Source: Squalus acanthias (lineage: Eukaryota). From it: a DNA stretch of 64,000 nt. Where the stretch lies: NCBI GenBank assembly GCA_030390025.1, contig CM059432.1:40612001-40676000 (forward strand), given 5' to 3'. Below are positions 1,540-63,302 of the stretch, in pieces. Below the pieces are notes generated by a model. The model saw nothing but the letters and a program-made list of their open reading frames with translations, was not told the DNA's origin and did no database searches. The translations under genes were made by a program, and so were the position numbers. The stretch's first letter is position 1. Each line of letters starts with the position of its first letter.

Positions 1540-3613
1540 ATTTCACTATAAATTCCAAGCATCAAATATAAGGAACTGATGGCAGAAAACAAAAGGAAGC
1601 CAATTAAAAAGCTACATTTCAAACAAGTCAATTTTAAAAGGCATGAGAGAATGCATGGGAATAGTAAAATGGGTTGCGATACTGGAAGGAAAAGATGGGG
1701 AAGGAAAGTGGCATAGTTTCAAAGGGATAGTTTTTAAAGATACAAAAAGAATGTATCCCTGGACTAGGTCAGGGGCAGAATAAAAGAGTGAGACTAGTTT
1801 GGCTTGCTAACAATGTTGTGAAAGGCATTAGGGAGAAAGAGAAACCATACAAAATGTTTTAATGTTCAGGAAAGTAACAGCAGAGGGAGATCTATAAAGG
1901 TAGGCTGGGGAATGCCAAGAAACTGATAAGGGCTGCAATCGTAGCTGGAAACATAATGCAGAACAGTAAAGAATTCTTCAAGTATGTCAGGAGTAAACAA
2001 AGGGTGCAAAGAGGGGTTGGTCTACTAAAAAGTGACAATAGGGAAGTGAAGTCCAAAAATAAACTGCTGAAGTATTTTTCAACAGTGTTCACAAAAGAAA
2101 TGGGGGGTTAATGCCAGAATTGGAGTACACTTTGAAGTTGAATGTAGACTATTTTTTTTAAATCACAAGAGAGAACAAATTAAGGAGATTGTTAAAGCTG
2201 AATGTAGTTAAGGCTCCTGGCTCTGACAACCTTCATTCAAGGTTCTGAAGGAATTGGCTCAAACAATTGAGAGCCCTCTTGCGGATATTTTTCTGTGTTT
2301 ACTGGACTTAAGACAAACCCCAGAGGATTGGAAAATGGCAAATGTGGCTCCCATCTTCCAAAAAAGGGGCGAGGGATGAACCATCAAATTATAAGCCTGT
2401 GAGCCTGATTTCCACTGTTTCAAAGTATTATGAGGATTAACTAATTTGAGGAGATAACAGGCCTAATTGACAGGGGAGAGACAGTGGATGTTATCCACCT
2501 GGATTTCAGGAAAGCATTTTACGCTGTCCCACATAATAGCCTACTACATAAGATCCAAGCCCATGGAATGGATGGGAATGTATTAAAATGGATAAGCAAA
2601 TGGTTGGTTGGTAGACAACAACAAGTAGTAGTGGCTGGGCAGGTATCTGGTTGGCAGCTAGTTACCAGTGGAATGTCACAAGGTTCGGCATCAGGGCCGT
2701 TTTGTTTATCATTTTTATAAATGATTTAGAGGAAGGAATTGTGTCCAAAATGTCCAAATTTGCAGACGGTAACAAATTGGGAGCAGTGGCAAATGATGGA
2801 TATCAATACACACAAATTCAAGAGGAATCTGACAAGCTCGCTCAGTGGCCCGAGAAATGGCAGATGCAATTTAATATAATGAAATGTAATGTTATGAGAT
2901 TTGGCAGAGGGAAGGTTGATATGGATTATGTACTAAATGGGAATGTACTTGAGGTATCGAAGCAGGAGAGAGCTCTTTGGGTTTTAGTGGAAAAAAAAGC
3001 AAACAGAATGTTGGGGTGCACAGCAAGGTGTAGAACATACAAATCAAGAGAGGTCATTTTAAAACTGGTTTTGGCCCTGGTGAGACCACATTTGGAGCAT
3101 TGCGTGCATTTTTGGTCTCCCTATTTTATAAAGGATATTCAGTTGCTAGTGGGCGTACAGAGAAGGGCTACACGGTTGATCCCAGAACTTAAGGGAATGA
3201 TTTATGAGGAAAGATCACTTAGCCTGGGTCTTTTCTCTCTTGAAAAAGACCGAGAGGACATATAATAGAAGTGTTTAAAATTATAAAAGGTTTGAACAAA
3301 TGGATCCAAGTAAATTTTTCTGCCATGTGCAGAATTTAACCACAAGGGGACATAGTTACAAATTAAGGATAACAAAAGAAAATAGGAAATGTAAAACGAC
3401 CTTTTTTTTTAAATCAAAAGGGTGGTAAGTATGTAGAACAGATTACCGGCACGGGTGGTAGAACAAGAAATTTTAATGGGTTTCAAGAAGTAATTAGACA
3501 GATTCTCATCATCAAATGGGATTCAGGGTTATTAAAAATCCACCAAGGGAATACTGTGGATAGGTGGATAGACCGAAGGTCTTCTCTTGCCTGAAACTGT
3601 TACTAAGTTACTA
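1540..3613 (+). mobile_element. Degraded CR1 LINE ORF2 and 3' end
   Basis: LDFRKAF, QGS, KFADG and LVRPHLE motifs with frameshifts. Confidence 0.85.
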
Positions 3614-5297: not shown

Positions 5298-7450
5298 GGC
5301 CCGGATTTTGCGGTCAGCGGCGAAGTGACGGCGCTCGCCGCTGACCTCGAAGAAAGCTGCCCACAAAGATCTAGCGAGCTCTGTGGTGTGGATTTCACCT
5401 TTCTCGATGTTAATTTCATTCTGGCATCACCTATAGGGGATCTCCGGCTTCCAGCAACAGTGATGTTATCAAGCAGGCTAAGCAGCCAATCACAATGTAG
5501 AATTCTCACAGACAGCAAACCAGGAAGTAAAAAGTACTGATTATGCTTCACTTTTTAATCATTTTACAGAGAGCGAAATAAAGATTGGGACAGGGATTAA
5601 GGTAAAAGCTGAAATATCATAAACAAACTTTAAAAATAAAAGTATTTTTTATTATTTTAAAAATCTAGGAATTTTATCAATAGAGAAATGACATTCCACA
5701 AATAAAAAAATCGTTTCAGTGGACGCATTGGTTGTCATCGTCCAAAATTCTATAGATTCTGGAATGGATTTGGGAAAATGCTGGAATCTATTATAAAGGA
5801 TGCAATAACTGGGCACTTAATGATAAGATTGGGCAGCGTCAACATGGATTTATGAAAGGGAAATCCTGTTTGACAAACCTATTGGAGTTGTTTGAGGATG
5901 TAACTAGTGGAGTAGACAATGGGGAACCGGTAGATGTGATGTACCTGGATTTTTAGAAGGCCTTTGATAAGATCCCACACAAGAGATTGCTGAACAAAAT
6001 GAGGGCACCTGGAATTGGGGGTAATATACTAGCATGGATTGAGAATTGGTTAACAGACAGAAAACAAAGAGTAGAGATAAACGGGTCTTTTTCAGGATGG
6101 CAGGCTGTGATTAGTGGGGTACCGCAAGGATCGGTGCTTGGGCCCCAGCTATTCACAATCTATATCAATGATTTGGATGAGGGACTAAATGTAACATCTC
6201 CAAATTTGCTGATGATACAAAGCTAGCTGGTAGTGTCAGTTGTGAAGAGGATGTGAAGAGGCTTCAAGGGGATCTCGACAGGCTCAGTGAGTGGGCGAGA
6301 ACATGGCAGATGGAATATAATGTGGATAAATGTGAAGTTATCCACTTTGGTAGAAAAAACAGAAAGGCAGAGTATTTCCTAAATGGTGAAAGATTGGGGA
6401 ATGCAGATGCTCAAAGGGACCTGTACATGAGTCACTGAAAGTGAATGTGCAGGTGCAGCAAGCCATTAGGAAGGCAAATGGTATGCTGGCCTTCATTACA
6501 AGAGGATGTGAGTACAGGAGTAAAGAAGTCTTACTACAATTATATAGGGCCTTGGTGAGACCACACCTGGGGTACTGTGTACAATTTTGGTCTCCTTACC
6601 TAAGGAAGGATATACTTGCCATAGAGGGAGTGCAACGAAGGTTCACGAGATTGATTCCTGGGATGGCGGGACTGTCGTATGAGAAGAGATTGAGTAAACT
6701 AGGCCTGTATTCTCTTGAATTCAGAAGAATGAGAGGGGATCTCATTGAAGCATACAAAATTATTACAGGGCTTGATAGGGTGAATGCTGGGAGAATGTTT
6801 CCCTTGGCTGGGGAGTCTAGAACCAGGGGCCAGCACCTCAGGATAAAGGGTAGGCCATTCAGGACTGAGATGAGAAGAAATTTCTTCACACAAAGGGTGG
6901 TGAATCTTTGGAATTCTCTACCCCAGAGGGCTGTGGAGGCTCAGTCATTGGGTATATTCAAAACAGAAGTCGATAGATTTCTGACTAGTAAGGGCATCAA
7001 GGGATATGGCGATAGGGCCGGTGAATGGAGTTGAGGCAGAAGATCAGCTATGATCTCATTGAATGGCGGAGCAGGCTCGAAGGGCCGAATGGCCTACTCC
7101 TGCTCCTATTTCTTATGTTCTTATGTGCCAGAGAGGTTGCTCAGCAGTAATTATGACTTAGTACGCTGTTAAAAAATCAGTTACTCTTCATTCAACAAGG
7201 CATAACTTTTTTTTTTTTTAAAGGGGTTTTACAGCATGAATAGTGTGTAAAAAGTTCACATCAATTCAGTGATTTTAATTGATTTCCATCTGTGAGGACT
7301 GCAACAGCGCACCCTGTGGAGGAGCAGGATATCACTGACAGCAACTTCAGGATTTCCATGTTTAAATACTCCAGATGTTGCTGTCAGTTTTACAGAGTAT
7401 TCTTTGTAATTCTATGTATTTATATGTAACAACCAGCAGAAAAGCACAAA
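5298..7450. mobile_element. Harbinger-type MITE interrupted by CR1
   Basis: Starts GGCCCGGATTTT, like the 54369 TIR; right end not clearly found. Confidence 0.4.
5722..7125 (+). mobile_element. HER1-like CR1 LINE 3' part, inserted in a MITE
   Basis: [22 protein letters not shown]; tail ...TTCTTATGTTCTTATGT. Confidence 0.92.
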
Positions 7451-8652
7451 CCCTCAATAAATTATACCGTAGGTAAGAATAAAATATCGGCTTCCACCAC
7501 AGTTTGCCGTGGGTTTTGACAGCGGCAGTCCTGTATTCCAGGGTGAAGGCTGGGTATTATTTCTCAGAAGAACCTATCAGCTGATGCCCCCATCCCCTCC
7601 CCCTCCACATTACACCCTTAGGGTAATGTTAGAGAGAGTGAGGGTTTACAGCATTGTGGAGCTTGCATGGAAAACGTTCGTAATTGTAATGATACTCGTG
7701 ACAGAAAATCACAAAGATCGAGTGGTAAAACTCGAATAGTGAAACTTTGAAAAGTTGAACAATGCAAAACTTTGTAAAATTTCTAACAGAACAAATAGTC
7801 TTTGGGAATGTGTTCACTGCAGTAACACAATTTCATGCTTTAAGCAACAATCATAACCCACTCAAGCTTTACGCTGCAATTTATCATATCTGAGGCCCTA
7901 CATTGTATTACTTACTTGTACCACTCTCTGAAGCATCCTTCTCTATGTAACAAGTTACAGTTTCAGCACTAGATGCTCTGTTGCAATGATTGACTAGAAG
8001 AGCACTGCAAGCTTGGCAGAGGATGTATTTTATAAGAATATCTGTGAAATGTACATGCTGTCAGCCACAGACAATTCCCAATGCTGGGTGAGAAACAGAA
8101 AGAATACAAAATAATTCCTTTAAATATGTAATTATAGTAATGGTAATCACCTTGTTTTATCTGCATTGTATTGATGAATAAACCTGGTGAGTTCAAGCTA
8201 TTATTGGTTTTAATTATCTGACTCTCTTACACTTTCACACATTCTGATAATGAAATACTGTACCCTCTATGGACAGGGTATTCACACATCAAATCACATA
8301 GCTAATTGACCTTTTTGCTCAACAAATTGAACAGATGACACGAGAGACAATCTAAGTGGTTTTGTGTTTGGTTCCTAACACAACTAAGACTATGGAACAG
8401 CACTCGTTCTTAACCTTTACACTGCCACGTGCAAGTTTACTCATCTGGGCATGCTACTGATTTGCAGGCCACTAATGACTTTAGTTGCCTGTCAGTAGCC
8501 TGTTACAGTTCCAATTCGTAAAAAATGGTTAGAGATTGATAGGTGGTTCAGTTTTGTTCAGGCTGTGAATAGATCAGCCACATATATCAGGAGGGTTGCT
8601 AGCTTCATTCCTAATCTGTACTGATTTAGCAGCTCTAAATTGGAGCAGCTAT

Positions 8653-11605
8653 ATTTTTTTGGTTCATGGGATGTGGGCCTCGCCAGCAAGGCCAGCATTT
8701 ATTGCCCATCCCTAGTTGCCCTTGAGAAGGTGGTGGTGAGCCACCTTCTTCAACCGCTGCAGTCCGTGTGGTGAAGGTACTCCCACAGTGTTGTTAGGGA
8801 GGGAGTTCCAGGATTTTGACCCAGCGGCGATGAAGGAACGGCGATATATTTCCAAGTCAGGATGGTGTGTGACTTGGAGGGGAACTTGGAGGTGATGGTG
8901 TTCCCATGCGCCTGCTGCCCTTGTCCTTCTCGATGGTAGAGGTCGCGGGTTTAGGAGGTGCTGCCGAAGAAGCCTTGGCGAGTTGCTGCAGTGCATCTTG
9001 TAGATGGTACACACTGCAGCCACGGTACACCGGTGGTGGAGGGAGTGAATGTTTAAGGCGGTGGATGGGGTGTCAATTAAGGGGGCTGCTTTGTCTTGGA
9101 TGGTGTTGAGCTTCTTGAGTGTTGTTGGAGCTGCACTCATCCAGGCAAGCGGAGAGTATTCCATCACACTCCTGACTTGTGCCTTGTAGATGTTGGAAAG
9201 GCTTTGAGGAGTCAGGAGGTAAGACACTCGCTGCAGAATACCCAGCCTCTGATCTGCTCTTGTTGCCACAATATTTATGTGGCTGGTCCAGTTAAGTTTC
9301 TGGTCAATGGTGACCCCCAGGATGTTGATGGTGGGGGATTCGGCGATGGTAATGCCATTGAATGTCAAGGGGCGGTGGTTAGACTCTCGCTTGTTGGAGA
9401 TAGTCATTGTCTGGCACTTCTGTTGCGTGAATGTTACCTGCCACTTATCAGCCCAAGCCTGAATGTCGTCCAGGTCTTTATTATCTGAGGAGTTGCGGAT
9501 GGCACTGAACACTGTGCAGTCATCAGCGAACATCACCACTTCTGACCTTATGATGGAGGGAAGGCCACTGATGAAGCAGCTGAAGATGGTTGGGCCTAGG
9601 ACACTGCCCTGAGGAACTCCTGCAGCGATTTCCTAGGGTTGTGATGATTGACCTCCAACCACCACAACCATCTACCTTTGTGCTCGGTATGACTTGAGCC
9701 AGTGGAGAGTTTTCCCCCCCGATTCCCATTGACTTCAGTTTTACTAGGGCTCCTTGATGCCTCCTCGGTCAAATGCTGTCTTGATGGCAAGGGCAGTCAC
9801 TCTCACCTCACCTCTGGACCAAGGCTGTAATGAGGGCGGGAGCCGAGTGGTTCTGGCAGAACCCAAACTGGGCATCAGCGAGCAGGTTATTGGTGAGTAA
9901 ATGCTGCTTGATGGCACTGTTGATGACACCTTCCATCTCTTTACTGAGGATTGAGAGTAGATTGAAGGGGCGGTAATTGGCTGGATTGGATTTGTCCTGC
10001 TTTTTGTGGACAGGACATACCTGGGCAGTTTTCCACATTGTCGGATATATGGCAGTGTTATAGCTGTACTGGAACAGCTTGGCTAGAGGCACGGCTAATT
10101 CTGGAGCACAAGTCTTCAGCATGACAGCTGGGATGTTGTCGAAGCCCACAGCCTTTGCTGTATCCAGTGCGCTCAGTCGTTTCTTGATATCACGTGGAGT
10201 GAATCGAATTGGCTGAAGACTGGCTTCTGCGGTGGGGGAGACCTCAGGAGGAGACCGATATGGATCATCCACTCGGTGCTTCTGGCTGAAGATGGTTGCA
10301 AATGCTTCAGCTTTGTCTTTTGCACTCATGTGCTGGGTTCCACCATCATTGAGGATGGGGATATTCATGGAGCCTCCTCCTCCCATTAGTTGTTTAATGG
10401 TCCAACCACCATTCACAACTGGATGTGGCAGGAGTGCAGAGCTTTGATCTGATCCATTGATTATGGGATCGCTTGCCTGGTGCTGCTCCTGGCATGCTCT
10501 TCTACACTCCTCATTGAACCAGGGTTGGTCCCCTGGCTTGGTGGTAATGGTAGAGTGAGGGATATGCCAGGCCATGAGGTTACAGATTGTGGTGGAATAC
10601 AATTCTGCTGGCCCACATGGATGTCCAGTTTTGACATCTGTTCTGAATCTATCCCATTTAGCACAGTGGTAGTGCCACACGACACGATGGAGGGTGTCCT
10701 CAGTGCGAAGACGAGATTTTGTCTCCGCAATGACTGCGGTGGTCACTGTCATGGACAGATGCATCTGCGACAGGTAGATTGGCGAGGACGAGGTCAAATA
10801 GGTTTTTCCCCTCGTGTTGGTTCTCTCACCACCTGTCGCAGGCCCAGACTGGCAGTTATGTCCTTCAGGACTCAGCCAGCTTCGGTGCTACCGAGCCACC
10901 CTTGGTGATGGATATTGAAGTCCTCCACCTAGAGTACATTCTGTGCCCTTGCTACTCAGTGCTCCTTCCAAGTGGTGTTCAACATGGAGGAGTACTGATT
11001 CATCAGCTGAGGGAGGGCGGTAGGTGGTAATCAGCAGGAGGTTTCCTTGCCCATGCTTGACCTGAAGCCATGAGACTTCATGGGGTCCAGAGTCAATGTT
11101 GAGGACTCCCGAATGTATACCACTGTGCCGCCACCGGTGGGACAGGACTTATCCAGGGATGGTGTATGATTCTGTGAGTATGACTATGTCGGGCTGTTGC
11201 TTGACTCGTCTGTGGGACAGCTCTCCCAATTTTGACACAAGTCCCCAGATGTTGGTGAGGAGGACTTTGCAGGTGCTGAGGTCATCCGGTTTTATTCTTA
11301 TTCGTAGCAGTTTTTTACAACTGAGTGGCTTGCTAGGCATTTCAGGGGGCAGTTAAGAGTCAAACATATTGCTGTGACTCGAGTCAAATATAGGTCAGAC
11401 AACAGATTTCCTTCCATAAAGAACATTAGTGAACCAGACGGGTTTTTATGACAATCTGATAGTTTCATGGTCACCATTACTGATACTAGCTTTTTATTCC
11501 AGGTTTTATTTATGCCGCGGTGGGATTTGAACTCTTGTCTCCGGATCATTAGGCCAGGCCTCTGGATTACTAGTCCAGTAACATAACCACTATACTACTG
11601 TTCCC
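8653..11605 (-). mobile_element. Near full-length decayed CR1/L2-group LINE with tRNA-like 5' head, APE endonuclease and RT, no ORF1
   Basis: A box, anticodon arm and B box at 11522-11597; endonuclease N-terminus KVLLTNIWGL..QQPDIVILTES at ~11170-11268; RT motifs ([18 protein letters not shown]); ORF stop at 8712; A-rich tail; interrupts a Deu-SINE. Confidence 0.85.
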
Positions 11606-14600
11606 ATAGAGTACAATTGGTCTCAGCTCTCCTGAGATACAAAAGGCAAAAATCATCTGACGTTCTCACTCTTGATTGCCACCCAGTCATCCTTGCTAAA
11701 TTCCTGTGCATAGACTTTTGGTGAGAACAGGATTGTGATGCCTCCTCAGATCAAATATCCTGTCAACATTCACTTTTTGGGTTCACACCTGGAGAATGGC
11801 TATTTGGGAAAGGTACCCAAGGCACTCAGTGCTTGAGAAACTATACCCCAGCCAGGGGTGAATGCCTTCAGGAGAGGAGGGAAGAAGAAAAGAAATTTAG
11901 CTGGTCACATCTCTGTGTCACAGGGCAGTCTCCTTAAGATGGCTGTCACTTCGAAAGCCCTCGGCAAAAATGTACATGAGGGGGGATCAGCTGACCTTTT
12001 GTTTGCGATCCCACTGCCTGCCCCCAGAGATTGTACATTGCCAGGTTAGTCTCCTCCCCAAATTTAAAATTAAACAGGAGGCTTGGAGAGTGTTCTTGGC
12101 ATCAAGTTCATCATACCAAAATCAATGGGCTGCCCCAGAATCAGAGACAGAGCTCCTGTCGAAAAATAGAAGTCAGGAGAGCATAACTCCTCCCCCTCCA
12201 CCACCACCCCCCTCCACTTTCCACAATTCCATCTCCCACTCTGAGCTTTAACAACAGGTTTTCCTATGCTAAAATAGTGGAGGCACATGGCTGGAGAATA
12301 TAAAAAGAGTCCAGTGCACAGAGTACGAGTCTTTTTGCTCGGCCAGTTGTCAGCTGAGTTATAATCCCATGAATTCAGGACTACCCATTTGATGCAGATT
12401 ATCATACAAGGTATAGAGATGCATCAGGGAAGGCTGCAGACTACAGCAGATTTTCACCAGGATGGCCAATTCAGCAGAACAAGGTTGCAGTTGGCTTGCT
12501 CCTTTGCACTGGTCATGCCCTAGTACTGCTGTTCAGATAGAGACCAGTGCTTTGGCATAAAAGGTTGTGTACTAGGTCGTATTGTGCTGTGCAGGTTGTG
12601 TAGTGGTCAGGAGAATGTGATGTCAGATGATGAGGGAAGTTCCTCCATGGCACAGAACCAATAAAGAGCCCAAATGTTTCTACAACTATTTCCACAGCTT
12701 CGGTTTATGATTGCTTAAAGCTCCTGTGAAGCACCTTGGGATGTTTTACTATATTAAAGGCTCTATGTAAATGCAAGTTGTTCATTGACTAAACAATCGG
12801 CCTTTGGAGCCAATTTTTATCCAATCAAAAAACATGTTTTAGCAAGTTTTCCCAATACCAAAGTAGATAGTGAAAGCCAGGAGGAAGAGAAAAGGGAATC
12901 TTTTTTTTTCTTCATTTTTTAGAAAAATAAGCTATAGAAATGATACATTAGATGGAAAAATAAAGTAAATGTAGACCAGAGAGTGTGGGAAGAAAGAAAG
13001 ACTAGGGCAGGAATGACATTGAGCAAAACTAAAATGTTATTTTTTCAATTAAAATTGTATTTCTTGGAGTTTAATTTTGAAGTCCAGGGTTAACATTATC
13101 GTAATTAAGCGACTGCTGATATCCAAATCACTTTATTAGTGCTCACTTCAGGTCACAGTGCAGGAGCTAAAAACTCACAAAGCTAGCCAGTGAGACAGTC
13201 ATTTCCTGTCAGCGGTCAGAGAGTTAATTACAGAATATCGATTACCTTACTTTTCATCATTTGAGAGTCAAAGGACCAGAACCAGAAACTGGAGAAGAAT
13301 AAAAATGTGAGTAATGTTAAACTATAATCATTCCTCATCACAAGACAAACATCTAACTTTTGTTTTTGCAAAGGATTTTTTTTTTTTTTTAAGACCCTGG
13401 TAATGGTTGCTGTGCTCAGAGAGTAACCAGACAATGACCACCTGTGAGCCTGTCAGGACAGCATTAAGGAGCTCTGCAATGATCTTGCTTTAGTCAATCG
13501 CTGTGAAATGTCTCCTGTGGGTCTTTTCTGTTACATGTTTGCTCTTTTGTTAAAAGGGATAATTATAGATGGCAGCACTGTGAGAAAGAGTGATTAAAAT
13601 GGCCGACTGAAGATTCTTTGCTGTGAGATACACTCCCTGCCTTCGCCTCAGCTTCGTATGTTGCTCCAGATAACAACAAAATGCAAGTTCATTGCCACAT
13701 CTTCAATTGACCAAGATAGCTGAATAGATCAGAATTGTGCAACCAGATCTCCATTTGGTACATTCCAAAGTATTTTATGTTTTTCCAAACTGAAACTTGT
13801 GGACTAAAAGGTCACAGGTTCGATCCCCAGTCTGTGCTGAACTAACTCAGCCAGGGGAGTCATTGGTGCACTATAACTCAGGGCCCATGTACTAGGAAGG
13901 CAAAAACAGTGGCTTTGAGGTGACTTCTGTTGGAAAGAGAGAACGTCGAGCTGATGTACAAGTCCAGCCATGATCATATTGAATGGCGGAGCAGGCTCGA
14001 TCGGCCGTATGGCCTACTCCTGCTCCTATTTCTTATGTTCTCATGAAAGTGTGATTGTGTAGGTGATGGGCGAGTACAGCATTCGGCCCTAGGTGTGATG
14101 CCTTACATGATTGAATAGTTTGTGTTTCACTCACTGTCTAGGTTCACATAAAGGTGCCGAGTGAGAGCACAAATGTTCCCCCAATATTAATATTGAGTGT
14201 GGAATCTGAATAACTGACCTTTGCCTCATTCACAGCTGACTCCTCCTGGCAGCGCCCTCTGTGGGGCTTGCAGGAGTCAATTTGTGCTTATATCCTTAAG
14301 CCTCTGGGACTAACTGAATTTGCCAGGCTTGAGTTTGGAAATATCTGTGCTCAATGGTGAATTTAGGATTTACCCACCAATGGGAGGAGGGCTGAGAACA
14401 GATGTTTCAAACCGCTAGGCCCGTCAAATTCTGTATTAATTATTCATGTGTGAACCCGGATAGTGAGCACTAACAGGTTATTTGAACATTTGGCCTTCTA
14501 TTTGCAGAAAACAATCCCTCTGGGCCATCTGGAAACTTTAAAAATGGAAAGTGGTTGATTTTCAAAATTGAGGCTGAAGGGCAGCCCCAATAACTGAACG

Positions 14601-23479: not shown

Positions 23480-23782
23480 AGACCCACAACATCTACCATC
23501 TAGAAGGACAAAGGCAGCAGGTGCATGGGAACACCACCACCTCCAAGTTCCCCTCCAAGTCACATCATCCGGATTTGGAAATATATCGCCGTTCCTTCAT
23601 CGTCGCCGAGTCAAAATCCTGGAAATCCCTCCCTAACGGCACATTGGGAGTACCTCCACCGCATGGACTGCAGCAGTTCAAGAAGGCGGCTCACCACCAC
23701 CTTCTTGAGGGCAATTAGGGATGGGCAATAAATGCTGGCCTTGCCAGCGACGCCCACATCCCAGGAATTAATATATAAAAAA
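23480..23782 (+). mobile_element. 3' fragment of the same LINE family
   Basis: HHHLLEGN ORF end plus shared tail. Confidence 0.85.
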
Positions 23783-23989: not shown

Positions 23990-24321
23990 TTCTTTCTATT
24001 CGCTCATGGGATGTGGGCGTTCATGGCAAGGCCAGCATTTACTGGCCATCCCTAATTGCCCTTGAGAAGGTGGTGGTGAGCCGCCTTCTTGAACCGCTGC
24101 AGTCCATGTGGTGAAGGTACTCCCACAGTGCTGTTAGAGAGGGAGTTCCAGGATTTTGACCCAGCGACGATAAAGGAACGGAGATATATTTCCAAGTCAG
24201 GATGGTGTGCGACTTGCAGGTGGTGGTGTTCCCAAGCGCCTGCTGCCCTTGTCCTTCTAGATGGAAGAGGTCGCGGGTTTGGGAGGTGCTGCCGAAGAAG
24301 CCTTGGCGAGTTGCTGCAGTG
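23990..24321 (-). mobile_element. 3' fragment of the same LINE family, inside a degraded Deu-SINE
   Basis: ORF 24052-24372 matches the LINE C-terminus. Confidence 0.85.
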
Positions 24322-28719: not shown

Positions 28720-29590
28720 TGTGGGGATGTTCGCTGATGACTGCACAGTGTTCAGCACCATTCACAACTCCTTAGATAATGAAGCAGTCCATGCCCGCAT
28801 GCAACAAGACCTGGACGACGTTCAGTGCCAGGCAATGACTATCTCCAACAAGCGAGAGTCTAACCACCTCCCCTTGACATTCAATGGTATTACCATCGCT
28901 GAATCCCCCACCATCAATATCCTGGGGGTCACCATTGACCAGAAACTTAACTGGACCAGCCAAATAAATACTGTTACAACAAGAGCAGGTCAGAGGCTGG
29001 GTATTCTGCGGCGAGTGTCTCACCTCCTGACTCCCCAAAGCCTTTCCACCATCTACAAGGCACAAGTAAGGAGTGTGATGGAATACTCTCCACTTGCCAG
29101 GATGAGTGCAGCTCCAACAATACTCAAGAAGCTCGGCACCATCCAGGACAAAGCAGCCCGCTTGATTGGCATTCCATCTACCACCTTAAACATTCACTGT
29201 CTCCACCACCGGCGTACCGTGGCTGCAGTGTGTACCATCTACAAAATGCACAGCAGCAACTCGCCAAGGCTTCCTTCGGCAGCATCTCCCAAACCTGCGA
29301 CCTCTTCCACCTAGAAGGACAAGGGCAGCAGGCGTATGGGAACACCACCTCCTCCAAGTTCCCCTCCATTCACACACCATCCTGACTTAGAAGTATATCG
29401 CCGATCCTTCATCGTCGCTGGGTCAAAATCCTGGAACTCCCTCCCTAACAGCACTGTGGGAGTACCTTTACCACACGGACTGCAGCAGTTCAAGAAGGCA
29501 GCTCACCACCACCTTCTCGAGGGCAATTAGTGATGGGCAATAAATGCTGGCCTTGCCAGCGATGCCCACATCCCATAAATGAATTAAAAA
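28720..29590 (+). mobile_element. 5'-truncated copy of the tRNA-headed LINE family
   Basis: RT C-terminus nearly identical to ORF 8712-9539; same tail. Confidence 0.9.
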
Positions 29591-31169
29591 TAACTGTTAA
29601 GTGTTATACACCTGTAAGATCAGGTATGTGGCATTTTCAATGTGAGCAGTGTAAAAAAAATTAAGAGTCACCATAGCCTTTTGTTTACAAGGGGAAGGGG
29701 TTAAGACAAATTGGGAGAGGAAAGTGAACAGTTTAGATACTTCTTTACACAGAGGACAGTGAATATATAGAACAGACTGACCATGAAATAGTGGAGTTAG
29801 ACATTTTCAGTAAATTCAAGAGTAAATGCTTGGCAGAGAAATCGATTAAGGGGTATAAGAGATTAATACTTTTTAATGAATATACATTATAATTTAGTTC
29901 TAAACTTTCAAACCATTATGATTTAGCTTCCAAATCCATGGGGTCCTAAATAACAATGAAAGTCTACTTATTTTATTTTAAGTAAACAAAATGTACAACA
30001 AACCATATCCATCAGTTTAAAGCTGTTTAATCCAGTCATTCCAATGTTACCAATCTACCAGCAAGGGAAAGTATGTGTGTCTGGTTAGAACAAAAATAGC
30101 TGGATATAATGTGCCCATAATATAGTGAGCAAGAGTTCCTCTTCCTCCATTTTCATGAATATGCCTATAAAGTGAGTAGTAGGCATTACTATTGAAGATC
30201 ATTGAATAGAAAAGAATACAAGAAATACAAACCTTACTTCTTGTCGTCATGTTTTTGTCACACTTTTGTGTCATATTTATCCATTATAAATTCCTGTCCA
30301 CATTTATAATGGAAACTACCTATGTAAACTTGTCACACTGTAATTTTACCCTCCTACCAATGGTGGCACTTTAGCAACTGTTTGTATCTCCCAGCTCCAC
30401 AGCCACCGCAGGAGAGAATAATAATATAAAATCAAAGTATTATATAAAAATATGTACAAAACATAGGGTTTTAAAATGGAGATGGAATTATATATTATTC
30501 CCTACATTTTAACAGTGACGACAATTGTGTACAGAAGATCAACTAGCGTATGATTAAATAAAGGGTGCACAATAGGGATACAGAGTTCATTTCACAATGA
30601 AGTGCTGTTAACAAAACCAAGTGAATAGGGCAGCAGTGAATTAGAAAGATCTTTCTCAGTCGCATCAATTGTTCCCTTATGCGTATTCTGCTTATACACA
30701 GCTATAGGGATAGCTTTGTTTTAAGTGAGATAATTAAAGTAAGTTTATTTTTATTGAGTTTTAAGACCTTAATACTGTACATAGTGCTAGATCTATCCAT
30801 GTGGTGAATGGATGGTTTGACATTCCAATGAGACACCAAAGAAAGGCTTAAAGGCTGCCAAATCAGCAGCTTGTCAATGTAACAAAACATAAGGATTGCA
30901 GCATTGGTGCCATCTACTGCTGTGTAGAGTATTAAAAAATCCTTGGTGCTGATAATAATCTCCATTAATATGTCCAATTAAAATGATTCGTTACTTCAAT
31001 ACACAAAGTTGTTCTGGTATTAAATGTTACTAGAACAGCTGGTAAATATATTTACAATGTACAATAAAGACATAATAGTATAGTGTATCATTGGCACTCT
31101 CACCTTTTCTCCAAATCCAAAAATAGGTTCTGAAAATCAGGCATGGAAGTCAGAACACCATTTTTTCCA

Positions 31170-37898: not shown

Positions 37899-39344
37899 TT
37901 TAGAAAAACGTACTGCAGTCAAACAGAGTCAGCATGGTTTTAGGAAAGGGAAATCATGTTTAACAAATTTGCTGGAGTTCTTTGAGGATGTAACAAGCAG
38001 GGTGGAGAAGGGTGGGCCAGTGAATGTGGTGTATTTGGATTTCCAGAAGGCATTCGATAAGGTGTCACATAAAAGGTTACTGCATAAGATAAGAGCTCAC
38101 GGAGTTGGGCATAATATGTTAGCATGGATAGAGAATTGGTTAACTAACAGAAAGCAGAGTCGGGATAAATGGGTCATTTTCTGGTTGGCAAATGGTAACT
38201 AGTGGTGTGCCACAAGGATCGGTGCTGGGGCCCCAACTATTTACAATCTATATTAATGACTTGGATGAAGGGATCAAGTGTAATGTAGCCAAGTTTGCGT
38301 ATGATACAAAGATGGGTGGGAAAGCAAGTTGTGCAGAGGACTCAAAGAATCTGCAAAGGGATATAGACAGGCTAAGTGAGTGGGCAAACATTTGGCAGAT
38401 GGAGTATAATGTGGGAAAGTGCGAGGTTATCCACTTTAGCAGGAAAAATAAAAAAGCAAACTATTATTTAAATGGAGAGAGATTACAGAATGCTACAGTT
38501 CAGAGGGACTTGGGGGTCCTTGTGCATGAAACACAAAAAGTTAGCATGCAGGCACAGCAAGTAATCAAAAAGGCAAATGGAATGTTGGCCTTTATTTCAA
38601 GGGGGTTGGAGTATAAAAGCAGGGAAGTCCTGCTACAACTGTACAAGGTATTGGTGAGACCACACCTTGAGTACTGTGTACAGTTTTGGTCTCCTTATTT
38701 AAGGAAGGATATACTTGCATTGGAGGCAGTTCAGAGACGATTCACTAGGTTAATTCCAGAGATGAGGGGGTTGACTTATGAGGAAAGGTTGAGCAGGCTG
38801 GGCCTATACTCACTGGAATTTAGAAGAATGAGAGGTGATCTTATTGAAACATATAAGATACTGAGGGGGCTCGACAGGGTAGATGCAGAGAGGATGTTTC
38901 CCCTCGTGGGGAAATCTAGAATTTGGGGGCACAGTCTCATCATAAAGGGTCGCCCTTTTACAACCGAAATGAGAAGTCGCACAACACCAGGTTATAGTCC
39001 AACAGATTTATTTAAAATTACAAGCTGTCGGAGCTGTCGCCCCTTCGTCAGGTAAAGGTACAATCTCCGCATCATGACTTTTACAATCGAGATGAGGAGG
39101 AACTTCTTCTCTCAGAGGGTCGTAAATTTGTAGAATTCTCTGCCCCAGAGAGCTGTGGAGGCTGGGTCATTAAATACATTTAAAGTGGAGATAGACAAAT
39201 TTTTGCAAGATAAGGGAGTGAAGGGTTATGGGGAGCGGGTTGGGAAGTGGCTTTGAGCCCTAGATTAGCCATGATCTTATTGAATGGCGGAGCAGGCTCG
39301 AGGGGCCAAGTGACCTATTCCTGCTCCTATTTCTTATGTTCTTA
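37899..39344 (+). mobile_element. HER1-like CR1 LINE 3' part containing a mini-PLE
   Basis: ORF 38192-39055 RT; TTCTTATG tail. Confidence 0.92.
38968..39077. mobile_element. 110-bp PLE mini-insertion in CR1: inverted hammerhead arm plus 15 nt of sense tail
   Basis: TSD CTTTTACAA(C/T)CGA at 38955-38967 and 39078-39090; tail ATCTCCGCATCATGA at 39063-39077. Confidence 0.85.
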
Positions 39345-55875: not shown

Positions 55876-56329
55876 GGGGTACGGTAGCATAGTGGTTATG
55901 TTACTGGACTAGTAATCCTGGACTATTGATCCGGGGACACAAGTTCAAATCCCACCACAGCAGCTGTGGAATTTAAATTCAGTTAATTAAATAAATCTGG
56001 AATAAAAAAAGCTAGCATTAGTCATGGTGACCATGAAACAACCGGATTGTTGTAAAAACCCATCTGGTTCACTAATGTCCTTAGGGAAGGAAATCTGCCG
56101 TCTTTACCCGGTCTGGCCTATATGTGACTCCAGACCCACAGCAATGTGGTTGACTCTTACCTGCCCTCTGAAATGGCCTAACAAGCCACTCAGTTGTACC
56201 AAACCACTACACGGACTGCAGCGGTTCAAGGCGGCGGCTCACCACCACCTTCTGAAGGGCAATTAGGGATGGGCAATAAATGCTGGCCTTGCCAGCGACA
56301 TCCACATCCCATGAACGAATAAAAAAAAA
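55876..56329 (+). mobile_element. tRNA-derived SINE sharing head and tail with the 8653-11605 LINE
   Basis: TAGCATAGTGG A box, GTTCAAATCCC B box; tail encodes HGLQRFKAAAHHHLLKGN as in the LINE ORF end. Confidence 0.9.
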
Positions 56330-62599: not shown

Positions 62600-63302
62600 G
62601 GGAACGGTAGCATAGTGGTAATGTTACTGGACTAGTAATCCAGAGGCCTGGACTAATAATCCAGAGACAAGAGTTCAAATCCCACCACGGCAGCTGGGGA
62701 ATTTAAATTCAGTTAATTAAATAAATTTGGAATAAAAGGCTAGTACCAGTAATAGTGACCATGAAACTACCGGATTGTCATTAAAAACCCATCTGGTTCA
62801 CTAATGGCAACACGGTGGCATAGTGGTTAGCACTGTTGCCTCACAGCGCCAGGGACCCGGGTTCGAATCCGGCCTCGGGTGACTGTCTGTGTGGAGTTTG
62901 CACATTCTCCCAGTGTCTGCGTGGGTTTCCTCCAGGTGCTCCGGTTTCCTCCCACAGTCCAAAGATGTGCGGGTTAGGTTGATTTGGCTATGATAAATTG
63001 ACCCTTAGTGTTAGGGGGATTAAATACGTGGGGTTACGGGGAATGGGTGGGATATGTGTCGGTGCAGGCTCGATGGGCCAAAATGGCCTCTATCTGCACT
63101 GTGGGGATTCTGTGATTCTGTGACTAATGTCCTTTAGGGCAGGAAATCTGGCGTCCTTACCCGGTCTGCCCTACAGCAATGTGGTTGACTCTTAACTGCC
63201 CCCTGAAATGGCTTAGTAAGCCATTCAAGGGCAAATAGGGATGGGCAATAAATGCTGGTCTTGCCAGCGACGCCCACATCCCGTGAACGAATAAAATAAA
63301 AA
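62600..63302 (+). mobile_element. Same SINE family, interrupted by an HE1-like SINE
   Basis: Head at 62600; body resumes at 63123; tail to ~63300. Confidence 0.85.
62807..63122 (+). mobile_element. HE1-like V-SINE
   Basis: tRNA head GGTGGCATAGTGG...GGTTCGAATCC; V-domain-like GTCTGCGTGGGTTTCCTCC..GGTTTCCTCCCACA; CR1-type tail; TSD ACTAATG at 62800-62806 and 63123-63129. Confidence 0.8.

Follow-up and report, generated by a model that had tools for sequence, protein, structure and literature searches.

A single-ORF LINE family with a heritable tRNA-type 5' end in Squalus acanthias, a candidate for transcription by RNA polymerase III

Introduction

[quoted passage not shown] A locus in the genome of Squalus acanthias raises the question of whether the two classes are always so divided. 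In a window of 64,000 nucleotides (nt) of assembly GCA_030390025.1 (contig CM059432.1, forward-strand positions 40,612,001-40,676,000; "the window" below denotes this whole stretch), an element on the minus strand opens with a tRNA-derived head and continues, through a SINE-like body, into an APE-type endonuclease and a reverse transcriptase. A preliminary description, made from the sequence alone, proposed that this is an autonomous LINE driven by a tRNA promoter. The present analysis establishes with high confidence that this genome contains an abundant LINE with a single open reading frame (ORF) and a heritable 5' end composed of a tRNA-derived SINE head and leader. The polymerase responsible is a separate matter, for which Pol III is tentatively ranked first.

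Results

Layout of the window copy

The features of the element are as follows (window positions, all on the minus strand).

11605 (first G) to ~8654: whole element, 2,953 bp, from the sequence
11513-11605: tRNA-derived head, with the first nucleotide of the element at 11605 (sequence, Rfam tRNA model and start-site counts)
11597-11587: A box, TAGTATAGTGG
11578-11562: anticodon-like arm, CTGGA-CTAGTAA-TCCAG; a second, partial copy of the arm is also in the head
11532-11522: B box, GTTCAAATCCC
11318-11512: SINE-like body and at the same time 5' leader of the LINE (18-copy alignment; SINE copies in the window have the same stretch as their body)
11272-11317: A-rich junction; the TAA at 11317-11315 closes the endonuclease frame upstream, and an ATA at 11295-11293 occupies the site of the family ATG
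10600-11271 (end approximate): APE-type endonuclease domain, frameshifted (KVLLTNIWGL...DIVILTES; Exo_endo_phos and Exo_endo_phos_2 on the homologous frame of copy L059)
9306-10002: reverse transcriptase domain in two frame pieces (Pfam RVT_1, E 3.1e-4 and 4.4e-15; 119 bits on L059)
8712-9305: C-terminal portion of the ORF, closed by a stop at 8714-8712; its final ~50 coding nt (from ~8763) are common to the SINE tail
8654-8760: 3' tail common to the SINE, with two hairpins and an A run at 8660-8654 (fold z scores and SINE copies)

The positions that the preliminary description had given for the A box, the anticodon-like arm, the B box and the ATA were all borne out on the minus strand, as were the endonuclease N-terminus, the reverse transcriptase and the A-rich tail that it had named. 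The N-terminal motif KVLLTNIWGL...DIVILTES falls in the open stretch 11352-11149, and the RVT_1 matches (Pfam) fall in the open stretches 10887-9808 and 9632-8712. The window copy is dead, its reading frame being in at least five pieces. It lacks ~90 bp at element position 1131/1132 that its relatives keep, ~25 nt just after the head that are present in other copies and, owing to a deletion at the junction, most of a hexamer-repeat stretch described below.

The junction and the 5' end are traits of a family

All genome searches were made in one genome, the window's own 3.7-Gb assembly. A 201-nt probe over the junction of head and body with the endonuclease gave 4,870 first-look candidates, of which 40, including the window itself, were scored. 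Apart from the window, 37 of 39 scored places cover the complete junction without a break, and two are split. Among 20 of these loci fetched for reading, 18 begin no more than 12 nt from tRNA position +1 (GGGAACGGTAGCATAGTGG...) with unrelated DNA upstream, while two are 5'-truncated; nine extend over ~3.0-3.4 kb to the common end ...CCCACATCCCATGAACGAATAAAA, and the remaining loci bear internal deletions of differing size, as in the form that joins nt 1-418 to nt 2628-2951 (L009). All fetched copies have the 3' tail and the A run in common. Four places in this sample cluster on one contig, and at least two of them represent a segmental duplicate (L011/L015, flanks 98% alike); another pair in the samples (L037/L053) is probably one duplicated locus.

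A second sample, free of bias towards the junction, was drawn with 220 endonuclease residues as the query. Here 150 of 123,496 first-look candidates were scored, each with an identity of at least 90%, and the search yielded 30 loci, including the query's own place. When their 5' ends were measured against the first 560 nt of L043, a real full-length copy, every one of the 30 followed head, body and junction colinearly over its own extent, eight of them reaching head nt 14 or less and 22 ending at scattered points between nt 28 and nt 381. Another 5' UTR, another shared upstream sequence or an ORF1 was seen in none of the 30. Copies truncated within the head or body run on into the ORF, which shows that a single RNA molecule contained both head and ORF.

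The upstream flanks of the 27 head-reaching copies are related through their locus only in the duplicate L011/L015, while one other pair has an unrelated repeat in common; 26 independent insertions lie behind these copies. No second tail follows the LINE in any of 18 downstream flanks, which excludes a LINE that landed inside a SINE. In 14 copies no consistent flush target-site duplication was found, and none is clear at the window copy. Chance adjacency, a one-off chimera and SINE-targeted insertion were ruled out by the recurrence of the junction, the unrelated flanks and the lack of second tails (0 of 18).

The preliminary description is thus supported in speaking of a LINE with a tRNA-derived head and in proposing that head and LINE arrived as one insertion, on the evidence of the census and the unrelated flanks. 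It had also named two findings that would tell against it, a junction unique to this locus and relatives with a different 5' UTR or ORF1: the junction is instead common to dozens of independent insertions, and the latter was encountered in 0 of 30 copies.

In three of the 30 endonuclease-chosen copies (L041, L057 and L051), unrelated inserts of 0.6-0.8 kb occupy the same AAT/AAG spot of the A-rich junction. These inserts are alike, have inverted repeat-like ends and lie in opposite orientation in L041 versus L057; the insert resembles a small DNA transposon whose target is of the TAA type.

The open reading frame: domains, start and selection

Of the open frames found, that of L059 is the longest, at 844 codons, and carries Exo_endo_phos at residues 41-241, Exo_endo_phos_2 at 135-244 and RVT_1 at 523-769 (Pfam, 119 bits for the last). 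Other copies carry ~130 codons beyond this frame, into the part shared with the SINE, and the ORF totals ~975 codons; its neighbours in a protein atlas are APE plus reverse transcriptase proteins of 940-990 amino acids. A full-length copy measures ~3.1 kb and has a single endonuclease-reverse transcriptase ORF without ORF1. The earlier remark that there is no room for ORF1 holds family-wide, with ~110 nt from the end of the SINE-like body to the endonuclease motif. None of the four best copies fetched, which are not an exhaustive census, contains a complete intact ORF. With an APE endonuclease followed by a reverse transcriptase, and with dispersed copies of variable 5' truncation and common 3' end, the element is a LINE; it looks CR1/L2-like, judging by the single-ORF layout and the structured tail with a short A run.

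The order at the family junction is an A-rich stretch with TAA and, ~30 nt on, the only nearby ATG. This site was recognisable in 39 copies (including two duplicate pairs), of which 27 have ATG, 11 have ATA (the window-type group) and one has AAG. The ATG precedes the endonuclease-frame TGC-AAA-GTC by 80 nt in 21 copies and by 74, 68 or 56 nt in a further five. Of the 27 copies, 26 have it out of frame with the endonuclease (offset 2 in 24, offset 1 in two) and one has it in frame. Upstream, the endonuclease frame stays open as far as the TAA and includes no ATG, and the ATG's own frame ends after ~48 codons, between endonuclease motifs I and II; by eye, no -1 slippery heptamer (X XXY YYZ) occurs from the family ATG to the end of its 48-codon frame. 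The ATA of the window copy had been read as a possible decayed start codon. Its homology with the family ATG agrees with that reading, but the out-of-frame position of this ATG in 26 of 27 copies does not. Since the ORF start is without an in-frame AUG, initiation would be unconventional, and the options that are open include non-AUG initiation, a frameshift from an ORF1 remnant and supply of the protein from other transcripts.

Hexamer repeats based on GGC (GGCACC GGCTAC GGACAC GGCAAC GGCACA) are located between the family ATG and the endonuclease, for example at 1416-1500 in L040/L058. Read in the endonuclease frame the stretch is arginine-rich, and copies vary by 6-nt steps. These spacing steps result from the hexamer repeat and hence carry no information on selection.

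Selection was analyzed in an alignment of 33 ORF sequences over 844 codons, with a mean pairwise mismatch of ~6%. Clustering failed to resolve two groups (32 versus one), so that shared and private variants were compared in place of a subfamily ratio of nonsynonymous to synonymous rates (dN/dS). Private, post-insertion substitutions outside CpG comprised 733 nonsynonymous and 295 synonymous changes (ratio 2.48), while the non-CpG variants common to at least three copies, taken as inherited from master elements, comprised 50 and 42 (ratio 1.19; Fisher p 0.0012). The lower nonsynonymous share among inherited variants places the ORF under purifying selection during diversification of the family, and in the master lineages it was functional.

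The 3' tail and the companion SINE

The last ~105-110 nt of the element form two hairpins, the fold z score being -2.6 for the window copy of the LINE, -3.95 and -3.43 for two of its other copies, and -1.95 for a window SINE. Such a fold would fit recognition by the reverse transcriptase, as in LINE/SINE pairs of the stringent type.

The companion SINE consists of nt 1 to ~365 of the element (through ...GTTGTAACAAACCGCTAC) joined to its last ~110 nt. This body-to-tail joint was found in all 39 other scored places (4,377 first-look candidates), and SINE-form joints also occur in Logan contigs of four public runs, whose kind was guessed. Full-length LINE copies and SINE copies begin at the identical nucleotide, and the ~250-nt leader that follows the head in the LINE is well conserved in an 18-copy alignment of the first 600 nt. 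The companion SINE is therefore the same LINE without its ORF. Both forms share the 3' tail, as expected of a SINE and its partner LINE; the short (~100-700 bp), non-coding form typical of SINEs is that of the ~450-bp SINE and not of the LINE. Further copies in the window, recognised by sequence comparison, are the following.

55877-56324, plus: SINE copy with head, body and the last ~110 nt of the LINE
944-1256, minus: SINE copy with shortened tail
62600-63297, plus: SINE copy split by a different tRNA-type SINE at ~62807-63122
28721-29591, plus: 5'-truncated LINE copy, last ~890 nt, 87.6% identity

The SINE within the third of these copies (~62807-63122, plus strand) begins GGCAACACGGTGGCATAGTGGTTAGCACTG... 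and is unrelated. Two ~300-nt fragments of the 3' part of the LINE, at 23482-23767 (plus) and 24004-24321 (minus), are inverted and ~240 bp apart.

The head: likeness to tRNA and promoter boxes

The likeness of the head to tRNA is real but weak. In the window copy ARAGORN called no tRNA, and the Rfam tRNA model gave 17 bits (E 0.92). The alignment of better-kept copies to this model takes in the D arm, an anticodon arm holding AGU, a 22-nt insert in which the anticodon arm recurs, and the T arm; the acceptor stem is absent from it, and the 5' GGGAACG is without a complementary 3' partner after the T arm. In the majority sequence of 29 heads, which begins GGGAACGGTAGCATAGTGG, the A box (TAGCATAGTGG, nt 9-19) fits the consensus TRGCNNAGTGG at 11 of 11 positions, the B box (GAGTTCAAATCC, nt 72-83) is close to consensus, and the spacing of the two is workable for a type 2 Pol III promoter.

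Runs of T on the sense strand

A run of four or more T on the sense strand would act as a Pol III terminator. Seven of 13 long copies contain no such run, and one or two, at differing places, are found in each of the remaining six. In the majority sequence neither the ORF region (33 copies) nor the first 600 nt (18 copies) has one; the T runs that do occur there are private, each to one or two copies. G, which is similar to T in frequency, forms five to 15 runs of at least four per copy. A control LINE from the same genome, a T-richer and more abundant family (1,000,320 first-look candidates; window fragments at 38144-39052, plus strand, and also at 2615-3262 and 6390-7031), has 8-10 T runs per 2.3 kb, or ~4 per kb, in those of its copies that have ~2.3 kb in common, at sites shared by up to eight of eight copies. 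The element thus passes a necessary no-terminator test that the control LINE fails. Phenylalanine is encoded by TTC 12 times versus TTT four times in the family, and by TTC three times versus TTT 17 times in the control. The T-poor codon choice could be a trace of terminator avoidance or a simple bias.

Reading covered four long-ORF copies, one control LINE family and two paralogues of the repeat that flanks the window copy upstream.

Flanks of the window copy

The upstream flank, at 11606-11880 on the minus strand, is an older, unrelated interspersed repeat that lies outside the element (39 other scored places, 68-92% identity). The downstream flank (8400-8652) matched only itself in the genome and is single-copy at the sensitivity of the search. 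Two paralogues of the upstream repeat, L071 and L072, extend to its end; both stop at the point at which the element starts, and what follows in them bears no likeness to the downstream flank. The suggestion that the two flanks are halves of one old SINE is not supported by these observations.

At ~225-371 of L071 (G000:C12:31402250-31402620) an older, diverged and more tRNA-like SINE head and body of the same kind, with a single anticodon arm, was observed. It lies ~21 nt beyond the point where the old repeat ends, a point that the window copy likewise adjoins. The position of a head next to the end of the old repeat at both loci may reflect a landing preference or an old composite element.

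Discussion

A possible route through Pol III

Transcription of the long, head-bearing form by Pol III is the explanation that we rank first, ahead of Pol II, although we put its chances at slightly under even. The internal A and B boxes of the head would recruit the Pol III machinery, transcription would start a few nt upstream of the A box, and each new copy would inherit its own promoter along with the head. On a sense strand devoid of a T-run terminator the polymerase could reach the 3' end and yield a full-length template, which the family reverse transcriptase would select by its 3' tail as it would SINE RNA. Consistent with this route are the intact A and B boxes of the majority sequence, which shared variants touch at a single degenerate A-box position, the identical first nucleotide of LINE and SINE, and the lack of an ancestral T run in ~3.1 kb of sense strand. 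Alternatively, the protein might come from rarer capped read-through transcripts, the Pol III products acting as templates. What we regard as the strongest argument is one of inheritance: a tRNA head is passed on only if transcription starts at or before it, which is how a type 2 internal promoter works, while transcription from a Pol II promoter internal to the original LINE would begin downstream of the head, which would then be lost. The full proposal, an autonomous coding LINE that uses a tRNA-derived Pol III promoter, whose ORF-deleted form is its SINE (possibly a classical elasmobranch V-SINE) and which is translated from an uncapped or in some other way unconventional message, is more demanding, and we consider it unlikely to be correct in all its parts.

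Several observations weigh against transcription by Pol III. The scarcity of T runs is largely compositional, owing to T-poor, C-rich codon usage, and is not significantly below expectation: dinucleotide shuffles predict 1.4-2.2 runs (P 0.11-0.22), and synonymous-codon shuffles predict ~2 (P 0.07-0.10 in three copies, 0.67 in the fourth). The two better-kept heads score 26.0 and 25.4 bits with the Rfam tRNA model, the gathering score of which is 29. Within the first 125 nt of 29 heads, variants common to at least three copies occur at 22 positions, and just one of these is among the 23 box positions, at a degenerate A-box site, where ~4 were expected; the avoidance of the boxes is a weak signal from a small count. 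With a well-kept copy as the query, no sequencing run recorded as RNA was listed as containing the element. Among the contigs listed from the four public runs (all 30 bins covered), no piece bridges the leader-to-ORF junction, and these contigs carry no information on transcript start, end or strand. An uncapped message poses a translation problem, and we know of no precedent for a 3.1-kb uncapped coding Pol III transcript. The 352-nt leader is no more stable than its shuffles (z 0.17), and the suggestion that it might act like an internal ribosome entry site gains no support from folding energy. As stated in the relevant part of Kojima (2024; PMC10886601), Pol III products and Pol III-type retroelements are shorter than ~1.3 kb, a limit tied to processivity. 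The restriction to a single genome counts on the same side.

Pol II, placed second and in our estimate rather unlikely, would make the full-length RNA from a promoter in the head or leader that starts at the first nucleotide; the head would then be a fossil, a TFIIIC-binding or an anti-silencing element, and the SINE a bipartite non-autonomous LINE, with or without the use of Pol III. The start would have to coincide exactly with tRNA +1 in both LINE and SINE, and both boxes have kept their canonical form in the majority sequence, whereas shared variants do occur at adjacent positions of the head. The length and coding capacity of the element are, however, what Pol II would be expected to handle, AATAAA motifs are present in the tail, the missing T runs remain within compositional expectation, and the tRNA fold is degraded, with no acceptor stem and a sub-threshold Rfam score. 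An ORF without an in-frame AUG near the 5' end is odd for a capped, scanning-dependent mRNA; the ORF2 of two-ORF LINEs also lacks such an AUG. Known self-promoted LINEs all use Pol II, and their bipartite deletion derivatives are thought to do likewise, in the passages of Kojima (2018; PMC5786205) on these elements. Were the element instead without any promoter of its own, it would be co-transcribed from the host or a neighbour, and the tRNA-like head would serve as a 5' processing signal, cut at +1 by an RNase P-like activity, in analogy to the self-cleaving ribozymes of R2, RTE and L1Tc. This would explain why the 5' end lies precisely at tRNA +1, with no need of a long Pol III transcript, and would agree with an ORF that lacks a conventional AUG, as in R2. 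Substrates of RNase P need an acceptor stem, and none forms here, for which reason processing of this type is judged unlikely; moreover, an abundance on the scale of 123,496 first-look endonuclease candidates would be hard to sustain through chance read-through. LINEs that cut themselves from co-transcripts are known (Kojima 2018, PMC5786205, citing Eickbush and Ruminski, in the part concerned), and still we hold co-transcription with processing to be improbable.

A similarly small chance is given to the idea that the head-bearing long copies are non-autonomous passengers, in effect long SINEs, whose protein is provided by another LINE that is autonomous, lacks the head and ends in the same tail. 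The window-type subgroup, with its ATA and deleted junction, still produced ~3-kb copies, the existence of the SINE shows that tail recognition works in trans, and a complete ORF was seen in none of the four best copies; against this stand the lack of a different 5' end among the 30 endonuclease-chosen copies and the purifying selection on inherited ORF variants in the very same copies. Single tRNA/LINE-1 and Alu/LINE-1 chimeras do exist in mammals, according to the pertinent section of a preprint (bioRxiv 10.1101/2025.02.02.635956), yet the identical junction at dozens of loci with unrelated flanks, and a SINE part that has no tail of its own at the junction, unlike the product of a template switch onto SINE RNA, leave chance adjacency, a one-off chimera or a LINE targeting a SINE with a negligible probability.

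Meaning of the family

In this one family the LINE and SINE forms have head, leader and tail in common, and the finding is of high interest to transposon biology, within the scope of one genome. It offers a concrete test case for whether Pol III can make a 3-kb coding template for retrotransposition and how such an RNA would be translated. It also supplies a worked example of the origin of a SINE body, namely from the leader of a LINE that looks CR1/L2-like, and a simple route for the birth of a SINE by internal deletion of a head-bearing LINE, with no separate capture of head and tail. If Pol III is indeed used, the conserved SINE "body" would be a LINE 5' leader, and the divide between SINE and LINE would amount to one internal deletion. 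If Pol II is responsible, the family would still be unusual as a LINE with a heritable tRNA-derived 5' end.

Comparison with known systems

Full-text literature searches yielded no LINE described as having a tRNA-derived head or 5' end, although a curated consensus (Repbase, Dfam) may already show such an end; a 35-nt junction string had no match in the metagenome contigs scanned. Among LINEs of the L2 clade, UnaL2 and ZfL2-2 likewise measure ~3-3.6 kb, have one endonuclease-reverse transcriptase ORF and no ORF1, and share a 3' stem-loop with SINEs in the stringent manner. We know of no tRNA-derived 5' end in single-ORF L2-clade LINEs of this kind. The tail and body described here presumably resemble the pair HE1/HER1 and the V domain. 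HE1, a tRNA-derived V-SINE of sharks and rays, is paired with the CR1-like LINE HER1 through a shared tail, in the part of Ohshima (2013; PMC3747384) devoted to it. Common to both cases would be an elasmobranch tRNA-derived SINE with the tail of a CR1-like LINE; that part describes tail sharing only, whereas here the LINE also has the head and body of the SINE at its 5' end.

Internal deletion, by which a short element comes to consist of the 5' and 3' parts of a LINE, is likewise seen in RIME/ingi, NARTc/L1Tc, WALLSI3/RTE, and Bov-A and Bov-tA/BovB, as set out in the relevant passages of Kojima (2018; PMC5786205). In those passages a small-RNA head is found on the SINE only and never on the autonomous LINE, the head being added to an already deleted bipartite LINE and SINEs being unable to encode protein; in the present family the head is on the LINE too. 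The same passages limit SINE bodies derived from LINE 5' parts to the RTE and Vingi clades and report no source for the conserved domains of SINE bodies.

R2 and the LINEs with a 5' ribozyme resemble the proposal made here in having RNA that is not a Pol II product (in R2, by co-transcription with Pol I) and an ORF without a conventional capped AUG. R2, however, is without a promoter of its own and is tied to its ribosomal DNA target, while the present element is dispersed and has an internal promoter-like head. Self-cleaving ribozymes at LINE 5' ends are listed for R2, RTE and L1Tc (PMC5786205, in the part on this topic). The TRIMp3 elements Cassandra, Helenus and Ajax are also mobile units that carry a tRNA- or 5S-derived Pol III promoter, but they are of the long terminal repeat type, non-coding and shorter than ~1.3 kb, unlike the coding LINE here; the relevant part of the same source assigns non-LTR elements to Pol II and SINEs to Pol III (Kojima 2024; PMC10886601).

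In the tRNA/LINE-1, U6/LINE-1 and Alu/LINE-1 chimeras, a small Pol III RNA likewise lies 5' of a LINE, by template switching. As far as the pertinent section of the preprint goes (bioRxiv 10.1101/2025.02.02.635956), these are single events without propagation, the tRNA chimeras numbering at most 21 loci and consisting mostly of antisense half-tRNAs on truncated LINE-1. In S. acanthias, by comparison, the arrangement is heritable, and template switching is by analogy a plausible origin of its head.

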